Shown here one piece after another: positions 2,866 to 35,445 of a DNA stretch of 50,029 nucleotides; position 1 is the stretch's first letter, and every line of letters begins with the position of its first letter. The stretch lies in the IMG/VR virus record IMGVR_UViG_3300033067_001279, positions 1 to 50,029 of that record; one strand, 5' to 3'. The notes beneath the pieces were generated by a model. That model did not search any database and was not told where the DNA came from. It worked only from the letters and a program-made list of their open reading frames with translations. A program made the translations under genes and the position numbers. The stretch comes from a virus (taxonomy: Duplodnaviria; Caudoviricetes).

Positions 2866-3068
2866 CCCGGAAGGAAGCGCACCGCCTGGTCAAGACGTTT
2901 AACGGGCCGGTCGCCTGGACGGCGACTTGCCCCTACTGCAAGGACTGCATGCGGGTGCTCCGCAAGTCCCTCCTCGAGGCGCCCATCACATGGGGCCAGA
3001 GGACCAAGGTGATCGCAGAGATTGCCGAGCACATCATCACCAATCACCCAGGGAGAAAGACCACATGA
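2862..3068 (+). CDS. Small early protein, possible C2H2-like metal site
   Basis: ATGA coupling; CPYC...HIITNH. Confidence 0.6.
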   Translation: MTRKEAHRLVKTFNGPVAWTATCPYCKDCMRVLRKSLLEAPITWGQRTKVIAEIAEHIITNHPGRKTT

Positions 3069-23182: not shown

Positions 23183-26100
23183 TCAGTCCTCCATCCCGGG
23201 AAGCAGATCGGAGAAATCTGCGTCTGCCCCGTCTTGCAATACCCTACTTTTCACCTCGGGCCAAACCTCCTGCACGGCATGCGCGTTATACACTTTGCGC
23301 TTGTGGTAGCGTGCCAGAAGTTCCTCGCCCAGGGCGGGTGACAGTGTGCCGATATCCTGGATCAATCCGTCAGCATCCATTGGCTTTTTCTGCTCCCAGC
23401 CCTTGATCCCGGTGGTGATCAGGGCGTTGCGCGCCTCGACCATCGAGAGCCGGGCGAGGAGCTCCTGGGCGCCAAGCCGCTGGTCGGGCGTCAGGGTGAT
23501 CTTTTCCGGGTCGTCCTTGGGGCTTTCGATTCGGCTGACATCATTGCCGGCGATCTCCTTGCGGAGGGCGGAAATGGCGGCGATCGCATCCTTGGCCCGG
23601 CGCATCGGGTGGAGGCGTTCCACCTTCGCATCAAAATTGCCGGTGAGTAGGGCATAGGCCTTGAGGTTTTCGTTCTTGCTCTCGAGGAAAGTGTTGGCCG
23701 CCGCGGCGCCCTGGCTGTCGAGAATGTCCTTATAGGTGTTGGCAGTCTGGGCCATGGGCCCGGTCTGCTCGGACATCTGATCCCAGAACTGGCGGCTCGA
23801 GACGGCGCCCGAAGTCGCCTGCTTGATGAACCGCCGGCTCAGGGCATTGGTGGCCGTCTCGAGAACGCCGCGCTCCTGGGCGCGATCGACCGAGGCCGAG
23901 GTGATGATCTGCCCCCAGGACGCACCAAATCCCTGAATGGCGTGGTCGATCATGGCCGGGCTCATGTTGGTGGCATAGCCCATCGCCTTGGCGATCTCTG
24001 AGGTCCGGGCGGTGTACTGGCGCCAGGGCTCAAAGCCGGCGATGTCCTGGCCGACGATCGGCTGCCCGAACGAGTCGACGTTGTGGGCGAGCTCATAGCC
24101 CACCTTGAAGATCGGCACTTCGGTGGGCGGCGCGGTCACGTCATAGAGGCCGGAGACAAAGCTCTCGAGGGCGAGCGGGTTGCGCTTGTATACGGCATCG
24201 AATCCGCGCTCGAACAGGTTGGCCACAAAGCCCAGCTCGAACGGCTTGGGAATGGCCACCCAGTTGCCGGGGCTGAGCTTTACCATCCAGTGCGTGGCGC
24301 GCACATAATCCGAGATCTCCTCATATTCCGGATCATCACGATAGAGGGCGGTGAGGCCGAGGCTAAAGACGCCCATGGCGGTGAGCGCCGTCCAGGCCTT
24401 GGCCGACTTGCCAAGGTTGGCGCGGTCCCTGGCCGAGAGCGGCCGGCCGGCGCGGTGGCTCACGTAAGGGGTGATCGCCTTACGAATGGCGCCCTCCGCG
24501 GTGAGCGTGCGCACCGCCTTGTCGAGGCCCTGGACCGAAGCATTGAGGAAGGTCACCAGGCGCCGCGCGGCGTGGGTCTTCGAGCCATGCCGGCCGAAGT
24601 CGATATAGTCGCGGGCCTGGTAGGCTGCCTCGACGGCCGCCTCGAACGGTGTCAGTCCGTCTTTCTTGGCGCGCTCGAAGCTGTTGCGGAACACCGCCAG
24701 GCGGGTGCCGGTTTCGCTGAGCTCGGTGAGCTCGGCAAAGCCGCGGATCGAGGCGAAGCGGCGCACCGCATAGCCGTTCTTGCGCAGCGCATCGAGGTCG
24801 CGCATCACCCGGCCCTTGTCGAGGGCCGCGACATTGGCGCCGCCCATGATGCCGCCGAACGTGTTGTAGATCTGCGAGATCTCGTGCTGCATGATTTCAT
24901 CGCGGAGGCCGCGGGCGCCCGAGACAAAGGGAATGAAATCCATGCCGGTGAGCACCCAGGCCGACACCTGATCGCGGATGTAGTTGGCCAGGATGAACGG
25001 CGGCGCGGTGGTGATCGAGTAGCGCAGCATGCTCGAGGGCAGCGCCAGCACCGAGGTAAAGAGATCCCGGGACTCCTTGTTCATGCCGGTCATTGAGTCG
25101 TAGAGCTGGCGGCCGAAGTCGCCATCCGCCAGGCGCAGGGCTTGCTTTTTGCCATTGCGCCACACGTAGATGATCGGCTCGCCCTTCTCGTTGATCTCGC
25201 CGGCCTTGAAGACGGTGGCCTTGGCGTTGTCCCCGAGGAGATCGTCCACCAGGGTGGTGAGCGCGTCGATATCGCCGGGGTTGATGCCGGCCTCCTTGCC
25301 GGCGGCGCGGAGCACATCGCCCACGTCGACCGAGCTGCCCTTGAGCTGGGTCGAGGGGATCCGCTCCGCGATGGCGCCGCTCCCAGGGCCCGCCATCTTG
25401 GCGAGATCATCGAGGGCCTTGAACACATCGTTGCGCCGCATCAGCGCATTGAAGTGGTAGGCGTCGGTCATCATGCTTTCGATCGGGTTGATGATCGAAC
25501 GTTTGGACCCCTTGAAGGCCTTCACGATCGAGTTGCGCAACGTGGCATTGGGCTCGCGGCCCACCTCGCGATCAAGGTCCGAAAGGTCGCGCATGAAAGG
25601 CACGTAGTCGGGGCGCTGGATCAGGTCGTCGTAAAGCTCCTGGGTGAGGAATCCGCTCTCGTACTTCTTGCGCAGCATGTTGCGTTGCCACTCGTAGACC
25701 ATATCGGCGGCCTCGGTGAACTCCGGGTGTGCCAGCTCGAGCTCGGCAATCGCCGTCTGATAATCGCCCTTGGTGAACTTGCCAGGGGTGTTGGGGATCT
25801 CGCCGGCCAGGAAGCGATCATACTCGCGCACCGCGCGGCGTGAGATCAGGTAGGAGGCGAAGTCAGCCACGCGGCGATCGTCCCAGGAGGTCCAGCTATC
25901 GCCCAGGGCTTTCTCGAGGGCGTCGGACAGGCCAGGGCCTTCCGGCGTCACGCCATGATAGGGGACCACGCCATGCACCAGGTCGATGTGGCCGGCCGAG
26001 TAAGAGTCCTGGAGCAGGCGCGCCAGGCGGTAAGGATCCTGGGCGGAGGTGATGTCGAGGGCCCGACCGGTGCGCTTCTCGTAGATCTTGGCGAGCTCAT

Positions 26101-29100
26101 CCACCGCCTTATTGATCGGGTTCAGCTTGTCGAGCAGCGAGGTGTAGGCCGTCGAGGCATAGGTGGCGATCGTGGCGCGGACGCCGTTTGCCTGGGCTTC
26201 CTTGATGAGCTCGACGGCCGCCGAGTTGCGACGGCTCGAGACGACATCGCCGGCAATCGCCGCCTGCGACGGCGCCGTGACGTGCTGGCGGTAGGCCTCG
26301 GCAATCGCCTGGATGCTGGCGAGCTGCTCGGGGGCCTTGGTCCGGAGCATGTCCTCGAATGCCTTGGTGAACTGCGGCGCGGAGTTGCGGGCATAGGCCG
26401 GCGTGGTCACATAGAAACGGAACCACTCGGCAAAGCCTTCCGAGAGCTGTTGCTTGGGATCCGCACCCGCATAGGCGAGCGGCTCGAGCTCCTTGGCATG
26501 CGCCAGCTTGATGGTGTTCAGCGAGCGGCCCCACTGGGTTTCCATCGAGTGGGCGGTTTCGTGGGTCTGCGTCTCGAAGTCCGACACCTCGCGGAGGCGG
26601 ATCACACCTTGGCCGCGGTCATACTGGCCGGCGATGCGGCCGCCACCCTTGGGGGCCCTGGCAAGTCGGCCCTGGCGGACGGGCGCGCCGGTGAGCTTCT
26701 GGAGCTCGGCGCTGATGTCCTCGAGGCGGGGTGCCAGCTCCGGCGTAGCCTGGCCGGCAACCTGGACCGTGCCGGCCTGGGGCCGGTTGGTCGGCATGGT
26801 GGACTGTTGCGGCCGCCGGGCGAGGGCTATTCCTTCGGTGGGGTTACCCCCGTCTTGGCGAACAGCTCCTTGAACATCTTGTCCGTCGAGCGGTTTTCGA
26901 TCTCCTCCAAATCCAGAAAGCCCTTCGAGGGCGCCGGTGTCGTCGGTGACTTGAGGGGGATCTCCGGGGCGGCCGTTTGCGTCGATTTCGGCATAGCGAT
27001 CTGCAACTCCTTCTTGTCTGAGAACTCGGTAAGTCTCGGCCGGTGAAACGCCAACAGCCTTGACATATTCCGGGTTGATGATCCGCCCGGTCTTGATAAA
27101 TCGCCCGATCATGCGGCGGAACGCATTGTCGTAAGTCACCGCAATATTGATCAGGTCGACCTTGTAGCCGAAGGCCTGGAGGTTCTTGACCAGCTTGCGG
27201 ATCCCATCGGGGTTATGGCCCACCTTCGGGACCACGATGTTCGAGCCATCCGTGAGCATCCGCGCCAAGACGGCGTTCGCCATGTCGGCGCTTTCCTCAT
27301 GGACCGCATTGGCCCCGATGCCGCCATGGAACTCCGGAATTACCTTCTTGGCTTCATCGGGATCGACAATGGCCGCATAGCGATCGGCTGCGAAGCGATC
27401 TGCAAAGGTCGATTTGCCGGCAGCGGGCGGGCCCAGGACAATGGTAGCGCGGCGCTCATGCTTGACCGGGCCCTTGGTGGAGAAGGCGTTTGCCCCTTCA
27501 ACCAACCGATCAATGGCAGGATCGAAGCCATGGACCGGACCATCCGGGAAGTCATATACGCGGGACTGCTTCCACGCATCAGACATGAAGCCTGGTTGTT
27601 CATTCGTCAAGGGGATTGCGTCAAGGCGCCGCACCGCGTCTTGCACAAAGGGGTGCGCGGCGATTTCGTCAATCGGCGCACCATTGGCGAGCATGTCGGG
27701 CAGCCCGGTGCCGATCGCGTCGGTCTTGAACGCAAAGCCCTTTTGATCGGCCTCGGATCCGAACAAGCCGACATCCATGCCCTTTTGCGGCCGCTTGGCG
27801 CGGAGCGGCGCCTCGGCCCGGCGCTCGGCCAGGCTCTTGTTGGAGATCTGCTCCGCCCCGGGAATGACCATCTGCGGCTTGTTGTCGGCGCCCGGCTCGA
27901 GGATCGGGGCCTTTGGCTGGCTCATCAGGGTTTCGCGGCCCTTGTCGGTCAGGAAATAGCGAGTCACGCGATTGCCGGTCGCGGTGTAGCTTTCGCGGCC
28001 CTCGATCCAGCCCATGCGGGTGGCTTGGTTGATCTGGTCTCCAAGGATGTTATTCGGCGCGCCCAACTTGCCGCTCGCCAGTGAAAGGAGACGTTCCATT
28101 TGGGGCGTCATGGCAGGCGCCGCGGGGGCGCCCGGCTCATAAGTCGGACCGTTCACCTCGGCCTGGAACGCCGGATCTTTCTGGAGGGTGCTCGAGATCT
28201 GCTGACTGCGGGTCGCCCCTTCGGCCGGCTTGCCATAGAGCGCCGAACGCAGAATGTTGCCATCGGCCGCCACATAGGGCGGATCTATGCCCTCCTCGGC
28301 CAGGATCTTGAGGCGGCCCTCGATCTTGCTGTCCGCGACGGCGCCAAGGAAATGGATCCGGGTCGGCTTGGCCTCTTTCACGAACGCCCGGAACTCCTCC
28401 GCGCTGATGGCCTTTTCGTTGGAGGGGATCCCCGCGATGAAATCCGTCCCGAGAATGTTGCGCGCCTCGGCATAGGCCTGGGCGAGCGTCTTCTCGCCCT
28501 TCTGGAGCGGTACGATGAGGTTTTCAGCGAACGGGCGGAGATCGTCCGCATGCTGACGGAGGAGCGCGAGGGAAGCGGCCTGGTCGCCAATGATGTCGGG
28601 GGCCACGAAGACCGGCGGCGGATAGCTGTCCTCGGCCTGGTTGGCGTCCATGATGGCCAGGCGCAGCTCGTTGTATTTGTCGAGCACCGCCTGGAAATCC
28701 ATGTCCTTGAGCTGCGGCGGCGCGGCACCCTCGGCCCGGAACATATCGCCCAGGTCCGTGAGATAGCGGCCTTGCTCGCGCATGTTGCGGCGGAACAGGC
28801 CGAAAGCCCCGGAGTCGACGAACACCCGGGCATGCCAGTCGAGGATCCGCTGGGCCAGGCGCGGAATGTTGGCGTCCGAAAGCTCCTGCACGTCGATGCC
28901 AATGCCGCGCGTGTCAATGCCGCCGAAGGTGTGGGCGCCGGCCTCGAAGTCATTCAGCCGCGACATGCCGGAGGCGAAGCGCACGGCGCGCTCCTTGAGC
29001 TGGCGCACCTGGCCGTCGACGCCCTGGGGAACGGTCGGCTTGACGCCGTTGGATCGCACCAGGGTGGCGAGCTCGCTCCGGGATCCGTCCATGTGGCCGG

Positions 29101-32100
29101 TGGCGTTGCCCTGGGCGTCGAGGTGGGTGACCTGGTAGAGGCTCGGATCTCGCAGCGATTGCGTGACGATGATCGTCCGGCCGTCCTCGGTCTTACCCTC
29201 GAATGCGCCGGTGCGCTCGATCGCGCTCTCGATGTCGGCCTGGAAGGCGGCCATTTCCTGCCGGCGCTGGCGGATCTGCTCCTGAAAGGCCTTCATGCGC
29301 TCGGTGGTCGCCGGCGGCGGCATCACGTCGAACAGGCTGGGGCCCTTGTCAACCGGCGGCCGGCGGGCAAAGGCGATGTTGGGCTCGGTCGGATCCCAGG
29401 TGCCGCGGTTGTTGACGCTCTTGATCTGGGTAGGATCGAACGCGACAACCTCGCTGGGAAGGCGATGTGTGTAATTCTTGTTGAACACATCGCCAGCAAA
29501 GATGCCGTCATATCCGAGCTTCCGCACCTCCGGGATTATGTTCTTGCGAAACTCATCCAGAAGCGTGCTGCCATGGAGCCCGCCGTGCGAATCCCAGGCT
29601 GCGGCGTCCTCGCCGCGCACGGCGGTTTCCTCTGCGAACAGATCATTTTGGAGCTCCAAGGCGGTCTTGCCGCCTGTGATCCGCTTCATCACCTCATCGA
29701 CTTGCGGCGCGATGTGGTTTTGATAGAGCTCCTTGGGGGCCATGCCGGGATGTTCTTTTTCGGCAATTGCCTTGAAGTGAGCCTTCAATGCCGTCGCGAA
29801 ATTTTCGACAATCTCATCCGGCTGAGAGGTTTTCCCATGGATCCAAAGAGGATTTTGGATGCTGACGTAGAGCTCCATGGTGTTCGCGGCGGTGCCACCA
29901 CGTTGCAGGGAATAGGCATCAGCAAGGTATCGCTGCGGCGTCAAGTAGAATCCATCGGCTCCGAAAAATCCCTTGTCGAACCGCTTTCCTGCACCCTGCT
30001 TAAACTCGGTGAAGGCAGTCGGGCCGGTGCCGTGATAGATCACCAGCGGGTCGCCGTTCTCGTCCACCAGCTTGGAATGACCGAACCACCGCTTGAAGGC
30101 CGGTGAGTCGGTGGGGCCAGCGTCCGTCAGTCTTGCGGCGATCCCCGTTTCGTCCGGGCGTCCAACTGGGCCAGGGCGACCCCCGTCCGGACCAATTGTC
30201 TTGCTCGCTGTGCGGAGCTCGTCGAGAAAATCTCGGACAACGGCCGGACGGGAGTCTCCGTCTTTAAGCCGCTTGGCGGCAGCGGCGAGGGCGTCGGCAA
30301 TGGGGCCTTTGCGGCGGGCTTGGGCTTGGAGGGTGGCGAGGATCGCGGCATCTTGGGTTGCCCTTTCTGCATTGGTTGCGGTGGCCAGAGTGTTGCCGGC
30401 GCCGGTAAGGCGGGCCTCCTCCTTGACCAGGGTGGCGAAGGCGGCGCGGTCCTTGCGGATGGCGGTCGCCGCGGCGCTCAAGACCTGGGCGCGCTCCTTG
30501 AAAAGGATCTGCGTCACCTCGGCCGAGCCGAACATGTCCTCCATGGTCGATTGCACGGCCGGCGCGTCGAGCGCATCGCGGATCATGCTCTCGGCCTCGA
30601 TGGCATTGTCCGGCTGTTCCTTGGCCAGGAGATCGAGGAGCTGGGCGTGGGTCTTTGGATCCGGCGCCAGGCGGCCCACCTGGGCAGCGTAGCCGGCCGG
30701 AACTTTCTTGTTGATAACCATCCCGAAGGCGTCATCAGACAGGTTGGCGAGGCCCTGGGCATCGCGCACCAGGGCGGAGGTCGGCGGCAGATCAACCGCC
30801 ATATCCGGCCGCGAGCGGAGGATCTTGGCCGCGTCGATGGCGTTGCCGGTGCCTTCCGCGATGTTCTTGGCCGCGGCGATGGCGCGCGCATCCTCTGAGG
30901 TGACGCCATCGGCTTCCCGGAGGACCACGGCGCGGATCTTCGGCTCCTGGCCTTCCTTCTCGAGGCGCGAGGCCAGGCCATGGCGCTGGTGGCCATCGGC
31001 AATATAGAAATCGCCCTTCAGATCCTCCCACACCAGCGTGACGCCGGACTTGATCGGATCCCATTTCTTCACGCCCTTGAGGCGATCGGTAACCCCGGCC
31101 TCGTCGCCACCTTCCTTGAACTGGAAGCGCTTGGCGTCAACCTTGAGATCCGAGGGGTTGAACTGGCGCTCGGTGCGATCGACCGGCAGCGGCGCGGGCG
31201 GGGGCTCGACGGCGGCGGGTGGGGTCTGCTCGGCGCCGGGCAGCGGGGCAACACGTTGCGCGGACTTCTTGGCGATCGCGTCGGCCCGCGCGCGGAGATC
31301 CGCCGCATAGGCCAGTTCCTCGGCTTTGCGGCGCTCGAGATCAGCCTTGATCGTCTCATATTTCGGGCTGTCCTTCGAGACGCCGGGCTCGGTTCCCGTA
31401 GCCTCGGCATTGCGCTGGGCGCGGGTGGCAATATAGTCCGCCAGATCGGCGCGCCCATACATCTCGGCGGCGGCCATACCCTCGACGGTCGATCGGTTTC
31501 CGGCAGCATGGATTGGCGCGACAACCGCATCGCGGATTGCCTGCTCGATCCCGCCCACATTAGAGCGGTTGCCATTGGCGGCCACGGCTGCATCCGCTTC
31601 GGCGCGGAGCTTCTCCTCGAGGGCGGCGAACTGTGTCGGCGCCGTGCCCTGCTGCACCACGAAATCGCCCACAGGGTTGCCGGGCAGCGGAGCGGCGGGG
31701 CCGCGCTCCCTCGAGATCTGCGCGGTGAGATCCTCGGCTTTCCCGCCGGTGATGCCCGGCACGAAACCGCGCTTCGGCTTCACAATGCCGATCGAGGCCA
31801 TGGGGTCGGCCGAGTCCTCGAAGGCCTTCACCTCCGGGCTGTTGATGCCGAATTGATCGACGGCCTGGGCGAGCGCGTCGGCGTGGGTATCGCCCACAAA
31901 GAACTTGCCGCCGATCTGCACGGCCGGCTTGCTCTCGCTGCCCCTGAATTTCGAGGGGTCGATCGAGAGATCCGGCTTGACCGGCTCGACGGGCGGCGTC
32001 TCATTGGTGAGGCCGCCCTGGGTTTCGGTCGGCGCCTGGGGGATCTCGCCGGGCTTGTTGGCGTTGAGGTAGTCGTCGACCTTGGCGATCTGCTCGGGCG

Positions 32101-33031
32101 TCATTTCCCGAATGCCGACCACCTCACCGAACAGCGCCTCTTGGGCGGTGTTGAGGTCGCCCGGGCTATGGGTGGCCAGGAGATATTCAGGAGTTGGCGG
32201 TGCCAGGCCTTCGGGAGCAGGCGGCGGCGGTTCAGCGGCGGGCGGGGCAGCCGCTTCCGGCGGCGGCGTGGGGCCAGGCTGCGGCGGCGGGCCGGCCGGC
32301 GTGCGCTCGGCGTGGCGGGCCTCCTCACGTGCAGCGCGGCCCTCGAGGTAGCCGAACGGCATGCCGAAGCCAAAGCCGGCAGCGGCATCGGTGGCCAGGG
32401 ATCCCCAGTCGACCGAATCACGCAGGCCGGAGCCCCACTCCTCGGCCTGGACGATCGCGTTGATACTGGCATTCATCGCCGCATTCGACACGCTCGAGTC
32501 AAGGAGCCGCGAGAACATCGGGTAGGCCATGCGCCATCCGGCCGTGCCGATCTCGGCCGCCGGGTTGAGCAGCGAGGCCGGATCTGCCAGGGCGCCGGCC
32601 ACCGAGCCCAGGATGGCGGCGGAATAATCGGCCGCCGAGCTCGAGGGTTTCATGGCGTCATATTGCGCTTGACGTTCCTGGCGCCGCGAAATCATCAGAT
32701 CCGCCGTGGCTTTGCCGGCCTCGGAGCCAATGCCCTGGCCGTTCACATAGCCTTGCTTGGCGCTCTGAATATCCTTGAGCTCGTCGACGCCCGGCGTTCC
32801 GAAATCCTGGGCGGCGTTGAAGTGCTGAACAAATCGCTCCTTCCAGGAGGTGTCGGCCTGCTCCATGCGCTGGGCCGGCTTGCGATCGGGCGCCTGGATA
32901 TACTGATCGAACGGGTTGGCCGGGGCCTGCGGCGTCACCTGGACGCCCATTTCCGGCTGATAGGGCGGCGGCTTGATGTCCTCCGCATCCGCGGGAGCCG
33001 GGGCGATCGCTGAGCCGGGCATGGTAACCAT
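23183..33031 (-). CDS. Giant polyvalent internal virion/ejection protein (~3,280 aa)
   Basis: Third internal-virion gene after tail tubular B; ATG 33031 overlaps the upstream TAA, AGGAG RBS. Domains by motif: ParB-like (YIADGHQR, ~30400-31170); ART (YHGT/GFYLT/EVVAFDPTQIKS, ~29375-30110); TGT/DpdA-like (VFVDSGAF/PDIIGD/IHFLG, ~28235-28985); wHTH (~27930-28110); zeta-like kinase (GPPAAGKST, ~26980-27460); HETAH metallopeptidase (~26280-26720); LPD38-like (IPKPFELG, ~23850-24400). Confidence 0.9.
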   Translation of the reverse strand: MVTMPGSAIAPAPADAEDIKPPPYQPEMGVQVTPQAPANPFDQYIQAPDRKPAQRMEQADTSWKERFVQHFNAAQDFGTPGVDELKDIQSAKQGYVNGQGIGSEAGKATADLMISRRQERQAQYDAMKPSSSAADYSAAILGSVAGALADPASLLNPAAEIGTAGWRMAYPMFSRLLDSSVSNAAMNASINAIVQAEEWGSGLRDSVDWGSLATDAAAGFGFGMPFGYLEGRAAREEARHAERTPAGPPPQPGPTPPPEAAAPPAAEPPPPAPEGLAPPTPEYLLATHSPGDLNTAQEALFGEVVGIREMTPEQIAKVDDYLNANKPGEIPQAPTETQGGLTNETPPVEPVKPDLSIDPSKFRGSESKPAVQIGGKFFVGDTHADALAQAVDQFGINSPEVKAFEDSADPMASIGIVKPKRGFVPGITGGKAEDLTAQISRERGPAAPLPGNPVGDFVVQQGTAPTQFAALEEKLRAEADAAVAANGNRSNVGGIEQAIRDAVVAPIHAAGNRSTVEGMAAAEMYGRADLADYIATRAQRNAEATGTEPGVSKDSPKYETIKADLERRKAEELAYAADLRARADAIAKKSAQRVAPLPGAEQTPPAAVEPPPAPLPVDRTERQFNPSDLKVDAKRFQFKEGGDEAGVTDRLKGVKKWDPIKSGVTLVWEDLKGDFYIADGHQRHGLASRLEKEGQEPKIRAVVLREADGVTSEDARAIAAAKNIAEGTGNAIDAAKILRSRPDMAVDLPPTSALVRDAQGLANLSDDAFGMVINKKVPAGYAAQVGRLAPDPKTHAQLLDLLAKEQPDNAIEAESMIRDALDAPAVQSTMEDMFGSAEVTQILFKERAQVLSAAATAIRKDRAAFATLVKEEARLTGAGNTLATATNAERATQDAAILATLQAQARRKGPIADALAAAAKRLKDGDSRPAVVRDFLDELRTASKTIGPDGGRPGPVGRPDETGIAARLTDAGPTDSPAFKRWFGHSKLVDENGDPLVIYHGTGPTAFTEFKQGAGKRFDKGFFGADGFYLTPQRYLADAYSLQRGGTAANTMELYVSIQNPLWIHGKTSQPDEIVENFATALKAHFKAIAEKEHPGMAPKELYQNHIAPQVDEVMKRITGGKTALELQNDLFAEETAVRGEDAAAWDSHGGLHGSTLLDEFRKNIIPEVRKLGYDGIFAGDVFNKNYTHRLPSEVVAFDPTQIKSVNNRGTWDPTEPNIAFARRPPVDKGPSLFDVMPPPATTERMKAFQEQIRQRRQEMAAFQADIESAIERTGAFEGKTEDGRTIIVTQSLRDPSLYQVTHLDAQGNATGHMDGSRSELATLVRSNGVKPTVPQGVDGQVRQLKERAVRFASGMSRLNDFEAGAHTFGGIDTRGIGIDVQELSDANIPRLAQRILDWHARVFVDSGAFGLFRRNMREQGRYLTDLGDMFRAEGAAPPQLKDMDFQAVLDKYNELRLAIMDANQAEDSYPPPVFVAPDIIGDQAASLALLRQHADDLRPFAENLIVPLQKGEKTLAQAYAEARNILGTDFIAGIPSNEKAISAEEFRAFVKEAKPTRIHFLGAVADSKIEGRLKILAEEGIDPPYVAADGNILRSALYGKPAEGATRSQQISSTLQKDPAFQAEVNGPTYEPGAPAAPAMTPQMERLLSLASGKLGAPNNILGDQINQATRMGWIEGRESYTATGNRVTRYFLTDKGRETLMSQPKAPILEPGADNKPQMVIPGAEQISNKSLAERRAEAPLRAKRPQKGMDVGLFGSEADQKGFAFKTDAIGTGLPDMLANGAPIDEIAAHPFVQDAVRRLDAIPLTNEQPGFMSDAWKQSRVYDFPDGPVHGFDPAIDRLVEGANAFSTKGPVKHERRATIVLGPPAAGKSTFADRFAADRYAAIVDPDEAKKVIPEFHGGIGANAVHEESADMANAVLARMLTDGSNIVVPKVGHNPDGIRKLVKNLQAFGYKVDLINIAVTYDNAFRRMIGRFIKTGRIINPEYVKAVGVSPAETYRVLRQEGVADRYAEIDANGRPGDPPQVTDDTGALEGLSGFGGDRKPLDGQDVQGAVRQDGGNPTEGIALARRPQQSTMPTNRPQAGTVQVAGQATPELAPRLEDISAELQKLTGAPVRQGRLARAPKGGGRIAGQYDRGQGVIRLREVSDFETQTHETAHSMETQWGRSLNTIKLAHAKELEPLAYAGADPKQQLSEGFAEWFRFYVTTPAYARNSAPQFTKAFEDMLRTKAPEQLASIQAIAEAYRQHVTAPSQAAIAGDVVSSRRNSAAVELIKEAQANGVRATIATYASTAYTSLLDKLNPINKAVDELAKIYEKRTGRALDITSAQDPYRLARLLQDSYSAGHIDLVHGVVPYHGVTPEGPGLSDALEKALGDSWTSWDDRRVADFASYLISRRAVREYDRFLAGEIPNTPGKFTKGDYQTAIAELELAHPEFTEAADMVYEWQRNMLRKKYESGFLTQELYDDLIQRPDYVPFMRDLSDLDREVGREPNATLRNSIVKAFKGSKRSIINPIESMMTDAYHFNALMRRNDVFKALDDLAKMAGPGSGAIAERIPSTQLKGSSVDVGDVLRAAGKEAGINPGDIDALTTLVDDLLGDNAKATVFKAGEINEKGEPIIYVWRNGKKQALRLADGDFGRQLYDSMTGMNKESRDLFTSVLALPSSMLRYSITTAPPFILANYIRDQVSAWVLTGMDFIPFVSGARGLRDEIMQHEISQIYNTFGGIMGGANVAALDKGRVMRDLDALRKNGYAVRRFASIRGFAELTELSETGTRLAVFRNSFERAKKDGLTPFEAAVEAAYQARDYIDFGRHGSKTHAARRLVTFLNASVQGLDKAVRTLTAEGAIRKAITPYVSHRAGRPLSARDRANLGKSAKAWTALTAMGVFSLGLTALYRDDPEYEEISDYVRATHWMVKLSPGNWVAIPKPFELGFVANLFERGFDAVYKRNPLALESFVSGLYDVTAPPTEVPIFKVGYELAHNVDSFGQPIVGQDIAGFEPWRQYTARTSEIAKAMGYATNMSPAMIDHAIQGFGASWGQIITSASVDRAQERGVLETATNALSRRFIKQATSGAVSSRQFWDQMSEQTGPMAQTANTYKDILDSQGAAAANTFLESKNENLKAYALLTGNFDAKVERLHPMRRAKDAIAAISALRKEIAGNDVSRIESPKDDPEKITLTPDQRLGAQELLARLSMVEARNALITTGIKGWEQKKPMDADGLIQDIGTLSPALGEELLARYHKRKVYNAHAVQEVWPEVKSRVLQDGADADFSDLLPGMED
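26827..26994 (-). CDS. Nested out-of-frame 55-aa gene at the end of the zeta-like kinase domain
   Basis: AAGGAG 12 nt before ATG 26994; MPKSTQTAAPEIPLKSPTTPAPSKGFLDLEEIENRSTDKMFKELFAKTGVTPPKE with G/C-ending codons while the host frame switches to A/T-ending codons. Confidence 0.65.
   Translation of the reverse strand: MPKSTQTAAPEIPLKSPTTPAPSKGFLDLEEIENRSTDKMFKELFAKTGVTPPKE
30127..30351 (-). CDS. Nested out-of-frame 74-aa gene at the end of the ParB-like domain
   Basis: AAAGGG 9 nt before ATG 30351; MPRSSPPSKPKPAAKAP...RPLSEIFSTSSAQRARQLVRTGVALAQLDARTKRGSPQD; host frame uses atypical codons here (AGG, CAA, CTT, AAA, CGA, TTT, AGA). Confidence 0.55.
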   Translation of the reverse strand: MPRSSPPSKPKPAAKAPLPTPSPLPPSGLKTETPVRPLSEIFSTSSAQRARQLVRTGVALAQLDARTKRGSPQD

Positions 33032-35445
33032 TACTGCACTCCTGCGGGGGTCTTGGGGAGCCATTTCTCAGCCTCGCCGGTGCCAAATCGCTGGTCGAAG
33101 GCATCGGCCAGGGAGGGATTGGCGATGAGAGCGCGGACGGAAGCCTCGTCAACGAACGGCCAGCCACCCGGCGGCGGGCGGAGTTTCATCGGCACGGACA
33201 TGGTTCCGCTCCGGATCGGCGGAACGCGGGCAGGCTGGGCCGGGCGCTGGGGCTGGGCAGGCGCGGCGGGGGCGGCCGCGGGGGTAGTAGCGGCCGGGGG
33301 CAACTCGCCGTTCATGGCCTTCTCTGCGGTGCTGGCCTCGACGGCGTGCTCGAGGCCCTGGGTTTCGGCCACGGTCGGCGTGATGCCCTGGGCGGTCTTG
33401 CGGATAATGCCGGCGGTGATGTCTCCAACCTGCTTATCCCGGACCGATTCCGAAATGGCGAAGGCGAGCACCTGTTGCGCATAGGGCCCATAGATCTCGT
33501 CGACGTGGTTGATGGTGTCGCGCACCGCCGTCTCGGTGGCCTGGCGAATGGCCTTGCGGGCGGCCTGGCGCTCCTCGGGGGTCTTGGCCTTCGACATCGC
33601 CATGACCAGGCGGGCATCCGATTCGTCGATGATCTTCTCCACCGGCTTGATGATCTCGCGGGCATCGGTGCGGGTGATCGGCTGCTGGATGCCGTCCGGG
33701 ATCCCCACTTCGGCCTGGGCGGCGAGGCGCGCCTTGATCAAGGCCTGGATGCTGTCCGGCTTGGTCGGGTCATAGGTTTCCTTGGCCTTCTTGACGATGG
33801 GCGAGTCCTCGACCGACTTGGCCGGATCCTTGAGGCGGAGATCCTGGAGCTGGTTGGCGCGCTTTTCGGCCGCGTCATAGATCTCTTGTTGGCTCGAGAA
33901 GTCCGTCGCGCCGGCCGCCGGCTTGAGGGTCTTGAGGTGCTCCTCGATCTGGTCGTTGTTCATCGTCTCCATGGCGGTCACCGCGCCATAGGTGGCCACC
34001 GCGGTCTTGCGCTTCTCGAGCCACTTGGCCGCGTCATCCTCGCCCAGAGTGTTGATGATCGTCTGGGGATCCAGCTTGGTGCCCTGGCCGGTCGCCTTGA
34101 TCTGGGCAATGTCGTCGTCCATGGCGGATTTGACGTTGTAGCGATCGAGCGCTGTGGTTTCGCGCTGCTGTTTCTGGCGCTGGGCGATCTCGCTATCCGC
34201 GTTTGTCTGGAGGGCGAGTCGATCGGTGCCGTCGAGCACCTTGTAATAATCCGGCTGGTTGAGGCTGGCGATCTGGTCGCCGCCGCCAGCGATGATGTCG
34301 GCCTCCTCGTTGCGCCGGCGGGCGTTGATCCCGCCGTTGTCCTTCGAGAGGCCGCGCACCGCTTCCGAGATCTGCGCGATGTCGCCGCTCTTGATGGCAT
34401 TCACCACGCGGCCAGGCAGAGAGCCGTAGTTGTAAGCTACCGAAGTCAGGGCCGCCTTGGCAGCCGGCGGCAGCGAGGCCCAGGGGCCAGGGCCAACGTC
34501 CTGGACAATGCCGGACTGAAATTCACCAATGCGGCGCTGGAGGTCGCGCTCGGCATCGGCGCGCGTCACGGTCATGCCGGGCTTGACCGGGATCACCTGT
34601 CCATCCGCGGTGGTGATGGTGTCGGATCCGAAGCCAACCCGATATTTGTCCTTGTCGAAATAGGCGGTGGTGCGAAAGCCCTCTTGCTTGCGGATCAGGC
34701 CCTCGACGCCGCCCTGTCCACCCTCGAGCCAGGCGGCCGCGGCATTGGGGTCGTTCTGGATGTCCTGATCAATTCTCAGCTTGGCGTATTTCTGGGCCAG
34801 GCCGCGGCGCAGCTCGACGCCCTTGGCCGGGTCAATGACGCCGGTGGCAACCATGTTGTCGATGTTCGCCCGCGCCTGGCCCAGGATCTTGTCGGCGGTC
34901 TTCGGGTCCGTGCCAGGGGCGGCGGCCGCGCTGATCGAGTCGTCGAGGCCATTGATTGCGGTGGTGACGCGGAGATCCTTGTCGATGCCCTGGGCGCGGT
35001 TCTGGATGGTGAGGGCGCCCTGGGTTACATCGTCCTGGGTTTCAGCCTCGAAGCGGGCCCGGAGCGACGGCGAGCGGATCAGCGATGCGGAGGCCTGGCG
35101 GTGCTTCTCGATGTTGCCCTGGAAGGTCTTCCCCCAGTTGGCATAATCGGGGTTGTTCTCGAGCTGGTACTGGTTTTCCTCGGTGAGCCGGCGCTTGTTC
35201 CAATCGGTGCGGGCGCGGGTGAGGTCGAGGGCATCCCCCTGTTCCTTCTGGCGGATGTCGATCTGCCGCTGGTTGTCGATGTTCGCCTGGTTTTCCTGGG
35301 TGATCGTCTCGCCCATCCTGGCCACCGCACCGCCCAGGGCACGGCTGGCCTCGCCCACCATGTCCTGCTGCTGGCGCGGGATGGCCTGGGATTGCGGGAG
35401 GTTCATGCCGAGGCTGTCGGCGGTGGGCATCCTCGGCATGATCAA
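33031..35445 (-). CDS. Internal virion/ejection protein with a GH24 lysozyme domain
   Basis: LIRKQEGFRTTAYFD...VGFGS...VTRADAERDL...ALTSVAYNYG...NARRRNEEA within a helical protein. Confidence 0.85.
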   Translation of the reverse strand: MIMPRMPTADSLGMNLPQSQAIPRQQQDMVGEASRALGGAVARMGETITQENQANIDNQRQIDIRQKEQGDALDLTRARTDWNKRRLTEENQYQLENNPDYANWGKTFQGNIEKHRQASASLIRSPSLRARFEAETQDDVTQGALTIQNRAQGIDKDLRVTTAINGLDDSISAAAAPGTDPKTADKILGQARANIDNMVATGVIDPAKGVELRRGLAQKYAKLRIDQDIQNDPNAAAAWLEGGQGGVEGLIRKQEGFRTTAYFDKDKYRVGFGSDTITTADGQVIPVKPGMTVTRADAERDLQRRIGEFQSGIVQDVGPGPWASLPPAAKAALTSVAYNYGSLPGRVVNAIKSGDIAQISEAVRGLSKDNGGINARRRNEEADIIAGGGDQIASLNQPDYYKVLDGTDRLALQTNADSEIAQRQKQQRETTALDRYNVKSAMDDDIAQIKATGQGTKLDPQTIINTLGEDDAAKWLEKRKTAVATYGAVTAMETMNNDQIEEHLKTLKPAAGATDFSSQQEIYDAAEKRANQLQDLRLKDPAKSVEDSPIVKKAKETYDPTKPDSIQALIKARLAAQAEVGIPDGIQQPITRTDAREIIKPVEKIIDESDARLVMAMSKAKTPEERQAARKAIRQATETAVRDTINHVDEIYGPYAQQVLAFAISESVRDKQVGDITAGIIRKTAQGITPTVAETQGLEHAVEASTAEKAMNGELPPAATTPAAAPAAPAQPQRPAQPARVPPIRSGTMSVPMKLRPPPGGWPFVDEASVRALIANPSLADAFDQRFGTGEAEKWLPKTPAGVQ

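Follow-up and report, generated by a model that had tools for sequence, protein, structure and literature searches.

A small gene very probably overprinted on the ParB-like module of a phage polyvalent protein, and its predicted contact with that module

The lambda genes Rz and Rz1 are embedded spanin genes; Rz1, which has a role in lysis, carries a signal peptide and a lipobox cysteine and is secreted as a lipoprotein. Programmed frameshifting produces isoforms in phage genes, as for the tail chaperone G/GT and for dnaX, with two products made from two frames of one stretch of DNA. Classical type II antitoxins, such as that of epsilon/zeta, are encoded by adjacent genes and are not overprinted. 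Here we describe a 74-codon open reading frame (ORF) in the IMG/VR virus record IMGVR_UViG_3300033067_001279 (Caudoviricetes). The window, i.e., the whole stretch of DNA analyzed, is this record at its full length of 50,029 nucleotides. The ORF lies in the +1 frame of the gene for a 3293-residue polyvalent virion protein (the host gene), at the end of its ParB-like module. Comparison with relatives indicates that it is very probably a genuine coding overlap.

23183..33064, minus strand: host gene, 3293-residue polyvalent virion protein (ORF and translation, Pfam, PHROG neighbors)
30095..31267, minus strand: ParB-like (DdrB-like) module, host residues 600-990 (AlphaFold2 (AF2), Foldseek, phrog_10691)
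30127..30351, minus strand: putative nested +1-frame gene, 74 codons plus stop, over host residues 905-979 (translation, alignment of 90 loci)

As with Rz/Rz1, a small gene is contained wholly within a larger phage gene, in the +1 frame and with its own start, and it specifies a proline-rich product in genomes rich in guanine and cytosine (GC). The two products interact in both cases, here by prediction. Unlike Rz1, the nested peptide has neither a cysteine nor a hydrophobic leader, and its host is a virion polyvalent protein, not an i-spanin; an o-spanin (Rz1-type) reading was rejected on these grounds. The locus also differs from G/GT and dnaX in that a conserved ATG with a Shine-Dalgarno (SD) sequence, and stops just upstream, argue for separate initiation. 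It shares with epsilon/zeta a small helical protein encoded together with an enzyme that uses nucleoside triphosphate (NTP), and proposed to mask that enzyme; a further link is the Zeta-toxin domain found elsewhere in this polyvalent protein, itself accompanied by a conserved nested ORF. Unlike epsilon, both nested peptides are overprinted and neither matches a Pfam antitoxin family, and assignment to a known antitoxin family (epsilon or other) was discarded for want of a sequence match to any curated family.

Phage P1 provides a further comparison. As described in part of one report, P1 DdrB is packaged with small partner proteins in a fixed order (PMC12810830). Like the DdrB-like ParB domains and the P1 Dar system, the module studied here is a ParB/Srx-fold domain in a virion-delivered multidomain protein; unlike here, the P1 partners are separate genes. 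In KorA-KorB (PDB 8qa9, among the fold matches of the module), the state of a ParB-fold protein is altered by a small protein bound to it, as is proposed here. KorA differs in being a separate helix-turn-helix (HTH) repressor, with no sequence or fold relation to the single helix of our peptide. Overlapping phage genes are of a known kind, but an overprinted, module-linked partner in polyvalent proteins was not found in print. Our literature search returned no paper on overlapping genes in polyvalent proteins, and the part of the 2017 survey of these proteins that was covered (PMC5512222) has 0 occurrences of the word "overlapping", its supplementary architecture lists lying outside this scope.

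Relatives were collected by a protein-pattern scan of viral contigs, which gave 12 loci, and by a module-alignment scan, which gave 287 relatives, the best 80 being retained. The 90 loci analyzed are these 80, nine of the 12 first-scan loci and L014; L010 (truncated), L012 (a weak match of 64 residues) and L013 (the window itself) were excluded. They derive from 88 contigs, as L014 and L015 repeat L001 and L002, and contain 75 distinct versions of the stretch. The main ORFs of the relatives range from 34% to 74% GC, and their modules are 41-89% identical to that of the window.

Through the position aligned to host residue 925, the +1 frame was open for 71-200 codons in 90/90 loci. At loci with a GC content of ≤0.50, where +1 stops occur every 10-25 codons, the aligned stretch was the longest stop-free +1 stretch of the main ORF in 54/54 cases, and the longest other stretch had a median of 72 codons. 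It was also the longest at 10 of 24 loci with GC of 0.50-0.60 and at 3 of 12 above 0.60. In L003-L011 the longest other +1 stretch aligns with the nested ORF at the Zeta-domain end, and the two nested stretches measure 109-113 and 69-89 codons, compared to 33-65 codons for the next longest in these proteins of ~1100 residues. Note that in L003-L011 the gene as a whole has 39% GC and the overlapped stretch 47-49%; GC rises locally where the DNA is doubly coding. When synonymous codons were shuffled within each gene separately (72 of 73 unique loci; L041, which runs off the locus, was excluded), 0.5-6.9 stops were predicted inside the ORF, with 2-7 in the low-GC relatives. The probability of zero stops was below 0.05 in 47/72 loci and below 0.01 in 24/72, and 5000 shuffles at four low-GC loci gave P = 0 to 0.0018.

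Synonymous sites of the host gene are constrained over the same interval. Host third-position entropy was 1.62 bits for residues 640-899 and 1.14 bits for residues 905-975 (Mann-Whitney p 3.5e-16). Followed in steps of 6 codons, it falls at residues 900-905, where the SD-like motif and the ATG are located, and is back to 1.70 at residues 978-983, at the stop. The ratio of fourfold-site divergence in the overlap to that in the rest of the module was 0.37, 0.41, 0.56 and 0.52 in four divergence classes of sequence pairs. Over the C-terminal half of the peptide, conservation is higher for the +1 translation than for the host translation (0.476 versus 0.423 on the same bases; 67% of 2701 pairs), and host residues 960-977 vary most at host position 1, i.e., at +1 codon position 3. 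Over the N-terminal half the host frame is the more conserved (0.597 versus 0.417 for the +1 frame). Thus, each frame is constrained where the other is free: the peptide helix overlies a host linker, and host helices overlie the variable half of the peptide.

We next consider the start signals, which are located as follows.

30349..30351, minus strand: ATG conserved in the family, formed by the codon GAT of the invariant host Asp905 and the G of the next codon (54 distinct contexts)
30361..30366, minus strand: SD-like AAAGGG, 9 nt 5' of the ATG and built on AGG, a host Arg codon (sequence)
30370..30372, minus strand: alternative upstream in-frame ATG that would give an 81-residue product; only some relatives have one (sequence)

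The ATG was found at the same or the adjacent codon in 51/54 distinct contexts. Where the host codon is GAC, the previous codon is AAT or GAT in 13 of 16 contexts, restoring an ATG one codon upstream; the same was seen in only 3 of 37 GAT contexts. Among unique peptides, 68/73 start within two alignment columns of the window ATG, with two having only an upstream and three only a downstream ATG. At 8-12 bases upstream of the ATG, the host arginine codon is AGG or part of AGG AGA, generating AAAGGG or AAGGAGAG; this purine-rich AAGG/GGAG motif is kept although AGG makes up only 0-27% of the arginine codons gene-wide. SD duplex energies, calculated with a generic anti-SD motif and with all other out-of-frame ATGs of the same genes as controls, averaged -6.0 kcal/mol versus -2.7 kcal/mol for the control ATGs, and ranked in the top 5% in 17/52 contexts and in the top 25% in 41/52. 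Loci in which the start has moved (L009, L017, L021 and L064) have strong SD sequences of their own (-8.0 to -11.6). In 13/72 loci the +1 frame has a stop 2-5 codons ahead of the ATG, suggesting that this frame is entered at or after the ATG. These upstream stops, together with the onset of constraint at the SD and ATG, favor separate initiation over frameshifting, and the nested gene probably has its own initiation signals.

Taken together, a frame kept open beyond shuffle expectation, reduced synonymous change in the overlap and a conserved start with its ribosome binding site in the relatives point to a real overlapping gene. In the window, the ORF runs on the minus strand from the ATG at 30351..30349 to a TGA at 30129..30127 and encodes 74 residues (MPRSS...SPQD). 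The distances from the host start, 33064-30351 = 2713 and, for the Zeta-end ORF, 33064-26994 = 6070, both leave a remainder of 1 when divided by 3, which places the two nested ORFs alike in frame +1 relative to the host gene. A preliminary description, made from the sequence of the window, had placed a nested gene at 30127-30351 on the same strand and with the same +1 offset as the ORF at 26827..26994, and these coordinates and the frame agree with ours. Its ribosome-binding-site-like AAAGGG was located at 30366..30361, 9 nt 5' of the ATG, and the MP(R/K)S start that it named is present as MPRSS. As it also stated, the ORF overlaps the end of one domain and stops just before the next: it covers host residues 905-979, and ART-PolyVal begins at 1001.

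AF2 modeling of the peptide (38 of 74 unique peptides) predicted a disordered N-terminal half and one helix at residues 38-69 (pLDDT, the predicted local distance difference test, 81-89).

30145..30240, minus strand: segment for the conserved, predicted C-half helix, peptide residues 38-69 (AF2, family consensus)

In the host frame, the same segment encodes the end of the last helix and a disordered linker (host model pLDDT < 50, module residues 363-391). The family consensus of the C-terminal half is S.LSdeQl.qAistg..LAMLDALSMLqrK. Against a hidden Markov model (HMM) built on 71 other peptides (L001 and L002 excluded), the window peptide scored 48.6 bits, compared to 15.2 bits for the best of 1000 shuffles; by this profile match it is a divergent member of the family. 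The N-terminal half is basic and rich in Ser/Thr (over residues 1-37, K+R average 7.9 and S+T 9.0). The proline-rich N-half and helical C-half of the preliminary description both hold for the window peptide, which has 13 prolines in its first 37 residues. Its caveat that the proline richness may only reflect the overlapping frame also proved apt, the richness being peculiar to GC-rich members: the mean is 3.4 elsewhere in the family and 2.1 in the 14 loci with the lowest third-position GC content.

A profile search of 1.84 billion representatives returned 75 matches at E ≤ 0.001 and 24 at E ≤ 1e-10. Most of these are 80-103 residues long and therefore represent this nested ORF, predicted as a gene, with no name, on contigs from metagenomes. 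The C-half motif alone (LS.e.L..AI.LG.qMA..dAL.ML..KA) occurred in metagenome proteins of 127-454 residues, usually after a Ser/Pro-rich stretch (P0033, P0034, P0048, P0053, P0054, P0062, P0071, P0077 and P0050, the last also with Sel1 repeats). These proteins may share a portable helix or may themselves be additional ORFs read in the wrong frame; neither the viral contigs nor the genome contigs searched contained P0033.

The segment of the host protein whose end is overlapped by the ORF, residues 600-990, was not detected by Pfam or by PDB sequence profile, but matches phrog_10691 in PHROGs (9e-68). A further match covers the C-terminal 350 positions of PHROG 21, "portal protein" (E 1.6e-31), and some phages therefore seem to fuse the module to a portal or head-morphogenesis protein. 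The AF2 model of the module (44 of 91 sequences) reached a pLDDT of 77. In Foldseek, it matched N-terminal/HTH structures of Noc, ParB and KorB, the best being Noc (7nfu, E 4.5e-6); 11 matches had E ≤ 0.001, and sulfiredoxin came lower. Invariant in the 44 module sequences are the motif DGHQR (D91-R95) and A131, A132, N135, G139 and G141. The ParB-family fold matches and the invariant DGHQR lend support from predicted fold to the designation "ParB-like".

30983..30997, minus strand: invariant DGHQR motif of the ParB-like domain, host residues 690-694 (columns D91 G92 H93 Q94 R95 of 44 sequences)
30854..30898, minus strand: conserved host helix A..KNIAEGTG at module residues 124-138, predicted binding site of the peptide helix (co-fold contacts)

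Co-folding against the ParB-like domain had been proposed as a check in the preliminary description, and here the predicted complex passed. The peptide and module residues 25-300, run with alignments of our own, scored 0.75, 0.73 and 0.76, whereas the best of three controls scored 0.00. The mark was reached by 58/80 solved complexes and by 2/110 mismatched pairs in the benchmark, counts that hold only roughly for this setup. At least 92% of contacts were common to the runs, and the partner pLDDT was at least 63. In the predicted complex, peptide residues 35-70 contact the module helix 124-138, D91 of DGHQR and residues 145-161, with the lowest error for contacts between module residues 126-138 and peptide residues 53-64. 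On these models we marginally favor binding of the peptide to the ParB-like module.

What lies 3' of the module differs among relatives. Most relatives are ~1100 residues long, and in them the ParB-like module is followed directly by a Zeta-toxin region. Homology between the window protein and the relatives stops at host residues 978-987, and alignment resumes at ~1690-1770; host residues ~985-1690, including the ART domain, are thus either an insertion in the window or a loss in the relatives. The break in architecture falls within a few codons of the stop of the nested ORF, and module exchange therefore seems to respect the nested gene. The block at ~27995..30112 (minus strand), comprising ART-PolyVal and further unassigned segments, is missing from all relatives found.

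29408..30064, minus strand: ART-PolyVal domain, after the nested gene in the window (Pfam); missing here in all relatives found

A nucleotide search of isolate phages with the 2-kb region gave 2 short matches only. Among isolates, the nested ORF was recognized near the end of a 792-residue ParB-like protein of Dunaliella viridis virus SI2 (Caudoviricetes; 26 bits), and Ruegeria phage 45A6 gave a shorter, biased match to the nested peptide (25 bits), a diverged copy at L094:4824-5024. The SI2 record (L096, HQ332136.1, 3839-4135) carries a phage ParB-like module with the nested ORF, and its stated algal host looks doubtful. The nested gene accordingly accompanies the ParB-like module whatever lies 3' of it: ART in the window, the Zeta toxin in most relatives and the end of the protein in SI2. 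The nested coding sequence is annotated in none of the three records of SI2, 45A6 and Prochlorococcus phage P-SCSP1f.

The host gene lies in a podovirus-like virion block on the minus strand, recognized from PHROG structural neighbors, in a record of 65% GC (61-67%) with an estimated completeness of 95%. The block contains a terminase, a head-tail adaptor, a major head protein, two tail-tube proteins, an internal virion protein, an 804-residue protein with an endolysin-like part, the ORF at 23183..33064 and a tail-fiber gene; the host gene is flanked by internal-virion/lysozyme-like genes and the tail-fiber gene. Pfam detected ART-PolyVal (residues 1001-1219), Zeta_toxin (1872-2025) and LPD38 (2911-3059) in the one polypeptide. 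With the ParB-like fold added, several unrelated effector domains are joined in a single virion-associated chain, and the 3293-residue protein is therefore a polyvalent protein as defined by Iyer et al. 2017 (PMC5512222).

The Zeta-toxin domain has a nested ORF of its own.

26827..26994, minus strand: other nested +1 ORF, 55 residues, at the end of the Zeta-toxin domain (conserved in relatives)

A +1 stretch of at least 55 codons was present at the end of the Zeta domain in 40 of the 42 loci with a Zeta match, and the probability of zero stops was 0.001-0.08 in four low-GC loci. The peptide has a conserved M..KSTTT start and an acidic helical half (e.g. L003:4907-5122); no Pfam match was found for it or two homologs. 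This ORF is the second-longest +1 stretch in L003-L011, and a role as an overprinted antidote to the Zeta domain is possible. Homology of the two nested peptides was rejected (hhalign probability 0.1%). The preliminary description had regarded the ORF at 30127-30351 as built like that at 26827..26994, a likeness that does not extend to homology. Of the shared (R/K)TGV that it pointed out, RTGV is present at residues 55-58 of the window peptide, but KTGV is not conserved in the Zeta-end family. Its suggested rule, that captured domains bring an overprinted partner, survives in part: by conservation in relatives, two modules of the host protein each carry an overprinted small ORF, whereas the number of nested ORFs in the window is at the chance level. 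For the ART module, queried as a single sequence, no relatives were found.

How might the nested gene act? We propose that the ORF would be translated from its own SD-like site and ATG within the late mRNA of the polyvalent virion protein. In the 74-residue product, the N-terminal half would be largely dictated by the conserved host frame, and the C-terminal half would form an amphipathic helix of ~32 residues, encoded over a variable linker. Its binding surface would be a conserved helix next to the DGHQR loop of the ParB-like (DdrB-like) domain, whose coding sequence lies immediately 5', and the peptide helix may thereby cover the face adjoining the active-site loop. Part of the 2017 survey proposes that the ParB-fold domains found in polyvalent proteins are NTP-regulated, sequence-nonspecific DNases delivered with the DNA (PMC5512222). 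We prefer a module-specific masking partner, which would keep the ParB-like NTPase/DNase quiet or assembly-competent in the producer cell and in the capsid. On ejection of the polyvalent protein into the next host, this partner would be released or would stay behind. Alternatively, the helix might hold the domain assembly-competent, like the small Dar partners in P1 as reported in part of PMC12810830. With either role, the gene overlap could keep domain and partner linked through module shuffling. On balance we lean toward an overprinted, separately translated masking or assembly partner of the ParB-like domain. For its mode of action, which we infer to be either inhibition or chaperoning, we tentatively prefer an inhibitor to a packaging adaptor, which seems unlikely.

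Several observations weigh against this reading. Within the window, +1 ORFs of at least 74 residues are not above chance (9 versus 8.5 ± 1.9 in 1000 synonymous shuffles), and 56% of the shuffles yield an ORF of at least 74 residues at the place of the nested ORF, which ranks 8th longest among the 42 ATG ORFs of the +1 frame. Five longer +1 ATG ORFs of 112-191 residues in the host gene (28378..28953, 31069..31593, 30583..30996, 32101..32472 and 25090..25428, minus strand) match the shuffle expectation in number. The window SD is unremarkable (-4.4, 31st percentile among 102 control ATGs of the gene). The excess over chance for the nested ORF thus stems entirely from the comparison with relatives. 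There, the shuffle test taken alone is non-significant in 25/72 loci, mostly GC-rich, and the sequences share kinship, so that the counts are not independent events. The preliminary description had named a nested-ORF frequency equal to codon-shuffled controls, and no conservation in homologs, as observations that would speak against it; the frequency is indeed equal in the window, whereas conservation is clear, the frame being open in 90/90 loci. The more distant ParB-like module of P-SCSP1f lacks such an ORF. As to the product, the peptide modeled alone is a single helix with a mean pLDDT of 69. The family had no Pfam hit below E 0.0027 in 38 members and no Pfam family common to more than 2 of them, no PDB sequence at E ≤ 10, and no PHROG or PADLOC match; the function therefore lacks homology support. 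The best ESM Atlas feature score was 0.83, below the lead level of 0.9, with structure rows below the bar. The co-fold score is the model's own confidence and amounts to support rather than to binding itself, and the module was cut at residue 300, so that the removed helices 301-357 might occupy the same surface. Finally, two database proteins, P0030 and P0061, join a host-frame module tail to the +1 C-half, and a frameshifted product would fit them too.

The last point bears on the possibility that the second frame is reached by programmed +1 frameshifting instead of internal initiation, giving, alongside the full-length polyvalent protein, a shorter isoform that consists of the N-terminus and the ParB-like module and ends in the conserved helix. 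Besides the joined tails of P0030 and P0061, this possibility can draw on the conserved rare AGG just upstream, often after AAA or AGA, as a pause site, and a helix in cis that folds back on the domain would fit the same co-fold. Each of the two proteins comes from a single contig, however, and P0030 is ~10 codons short at the junction relative to its relatives and looks like a deletion variant; the pair could be natural deletion or indel variants, sequencing errors in an A-rich run or a sign of frameshifting. As described above, the ATG persists, with compensation, in 51/54 contexts, and loci with a moved ATG also gained an SD. In L032, L046, L050 and L069, a +1 stop stands between the SD-like AGG motif and the ATG, such that a shift at the motif would terminate at once, and synonymous constraint begins at the SD and ATG and not further inside. 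A shift 3' of the ATG would still be compatible with these stops. We consider frameshifting improbable. Still less probable is the absence of any second protein, with an RNA/DNA element or base composition at the module boundary accounting for the signal. An ORF in the GC-rich window is what shuffles predict, and the raised local GC of the low-GC relatives (0.47-0.49 versus 0.39 gene-wide) would agree with such an element. But RNA structure would not explain the lack of stops in a frame for which 2-7 are expected, nor the preservation of an ATG with its SD, nor the peptide-level profile (48.6 bits), and the C-half is most variable at +1 codon position 3.

A different case arises if the gene is real and separately translated but its product acts elsewhere than on the ParB-like domain, e.g. 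as a basic, DNA-binding internal virion peptide, a host-takeover factor or a capsid/portal adaptor, its link to the module being owed only to the free coding space that the linker offered. The basic, Ser/Thr-rich N-half would suit this, and the occurrence of the C-half motif in unrelated-looking proteins of 127-454 residues suggests a portable helix with a target of its own. P1 likewise packs several small Dar partners in order, according to the part of PMC12810830 concerned. On the other hand, the ORF accompanies this module in 90/90 loci regardless of what is downstream, and its co-fold with this module passes, all three controls scoring 0.00. We therefore regard a target elsewhere as unlikely.

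In conclusion, the same overlap is kept from 34% to 74% GC, providing a clean case of overprinting, and annotation pipelines miss what appears to be a whole class of small phage proteins. A bolder extension, which we consider rather doubtful, is that the enzymatic modules are mobile two-gene cassettes, each warhead carrying a small helical antidote, overprinted in the +1 frame on its own 3' end and linker, that silences it until ejection. If true, domain shuffling would always move weapon and safety catch together, and a toxin-antitoxin architecture, with the ParB-like DNase/NTPase and the Zeta-toxin kinase as warheads, would be escaping every gene caller. Polyvalent proteins are regarded as cocktails of anti-host enzymes that are injected, which raises the question of how a phage tolerates them while its virions are being built. 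A conserved, unannotated partner gene inside the module would be a concrete candidate for the answer.

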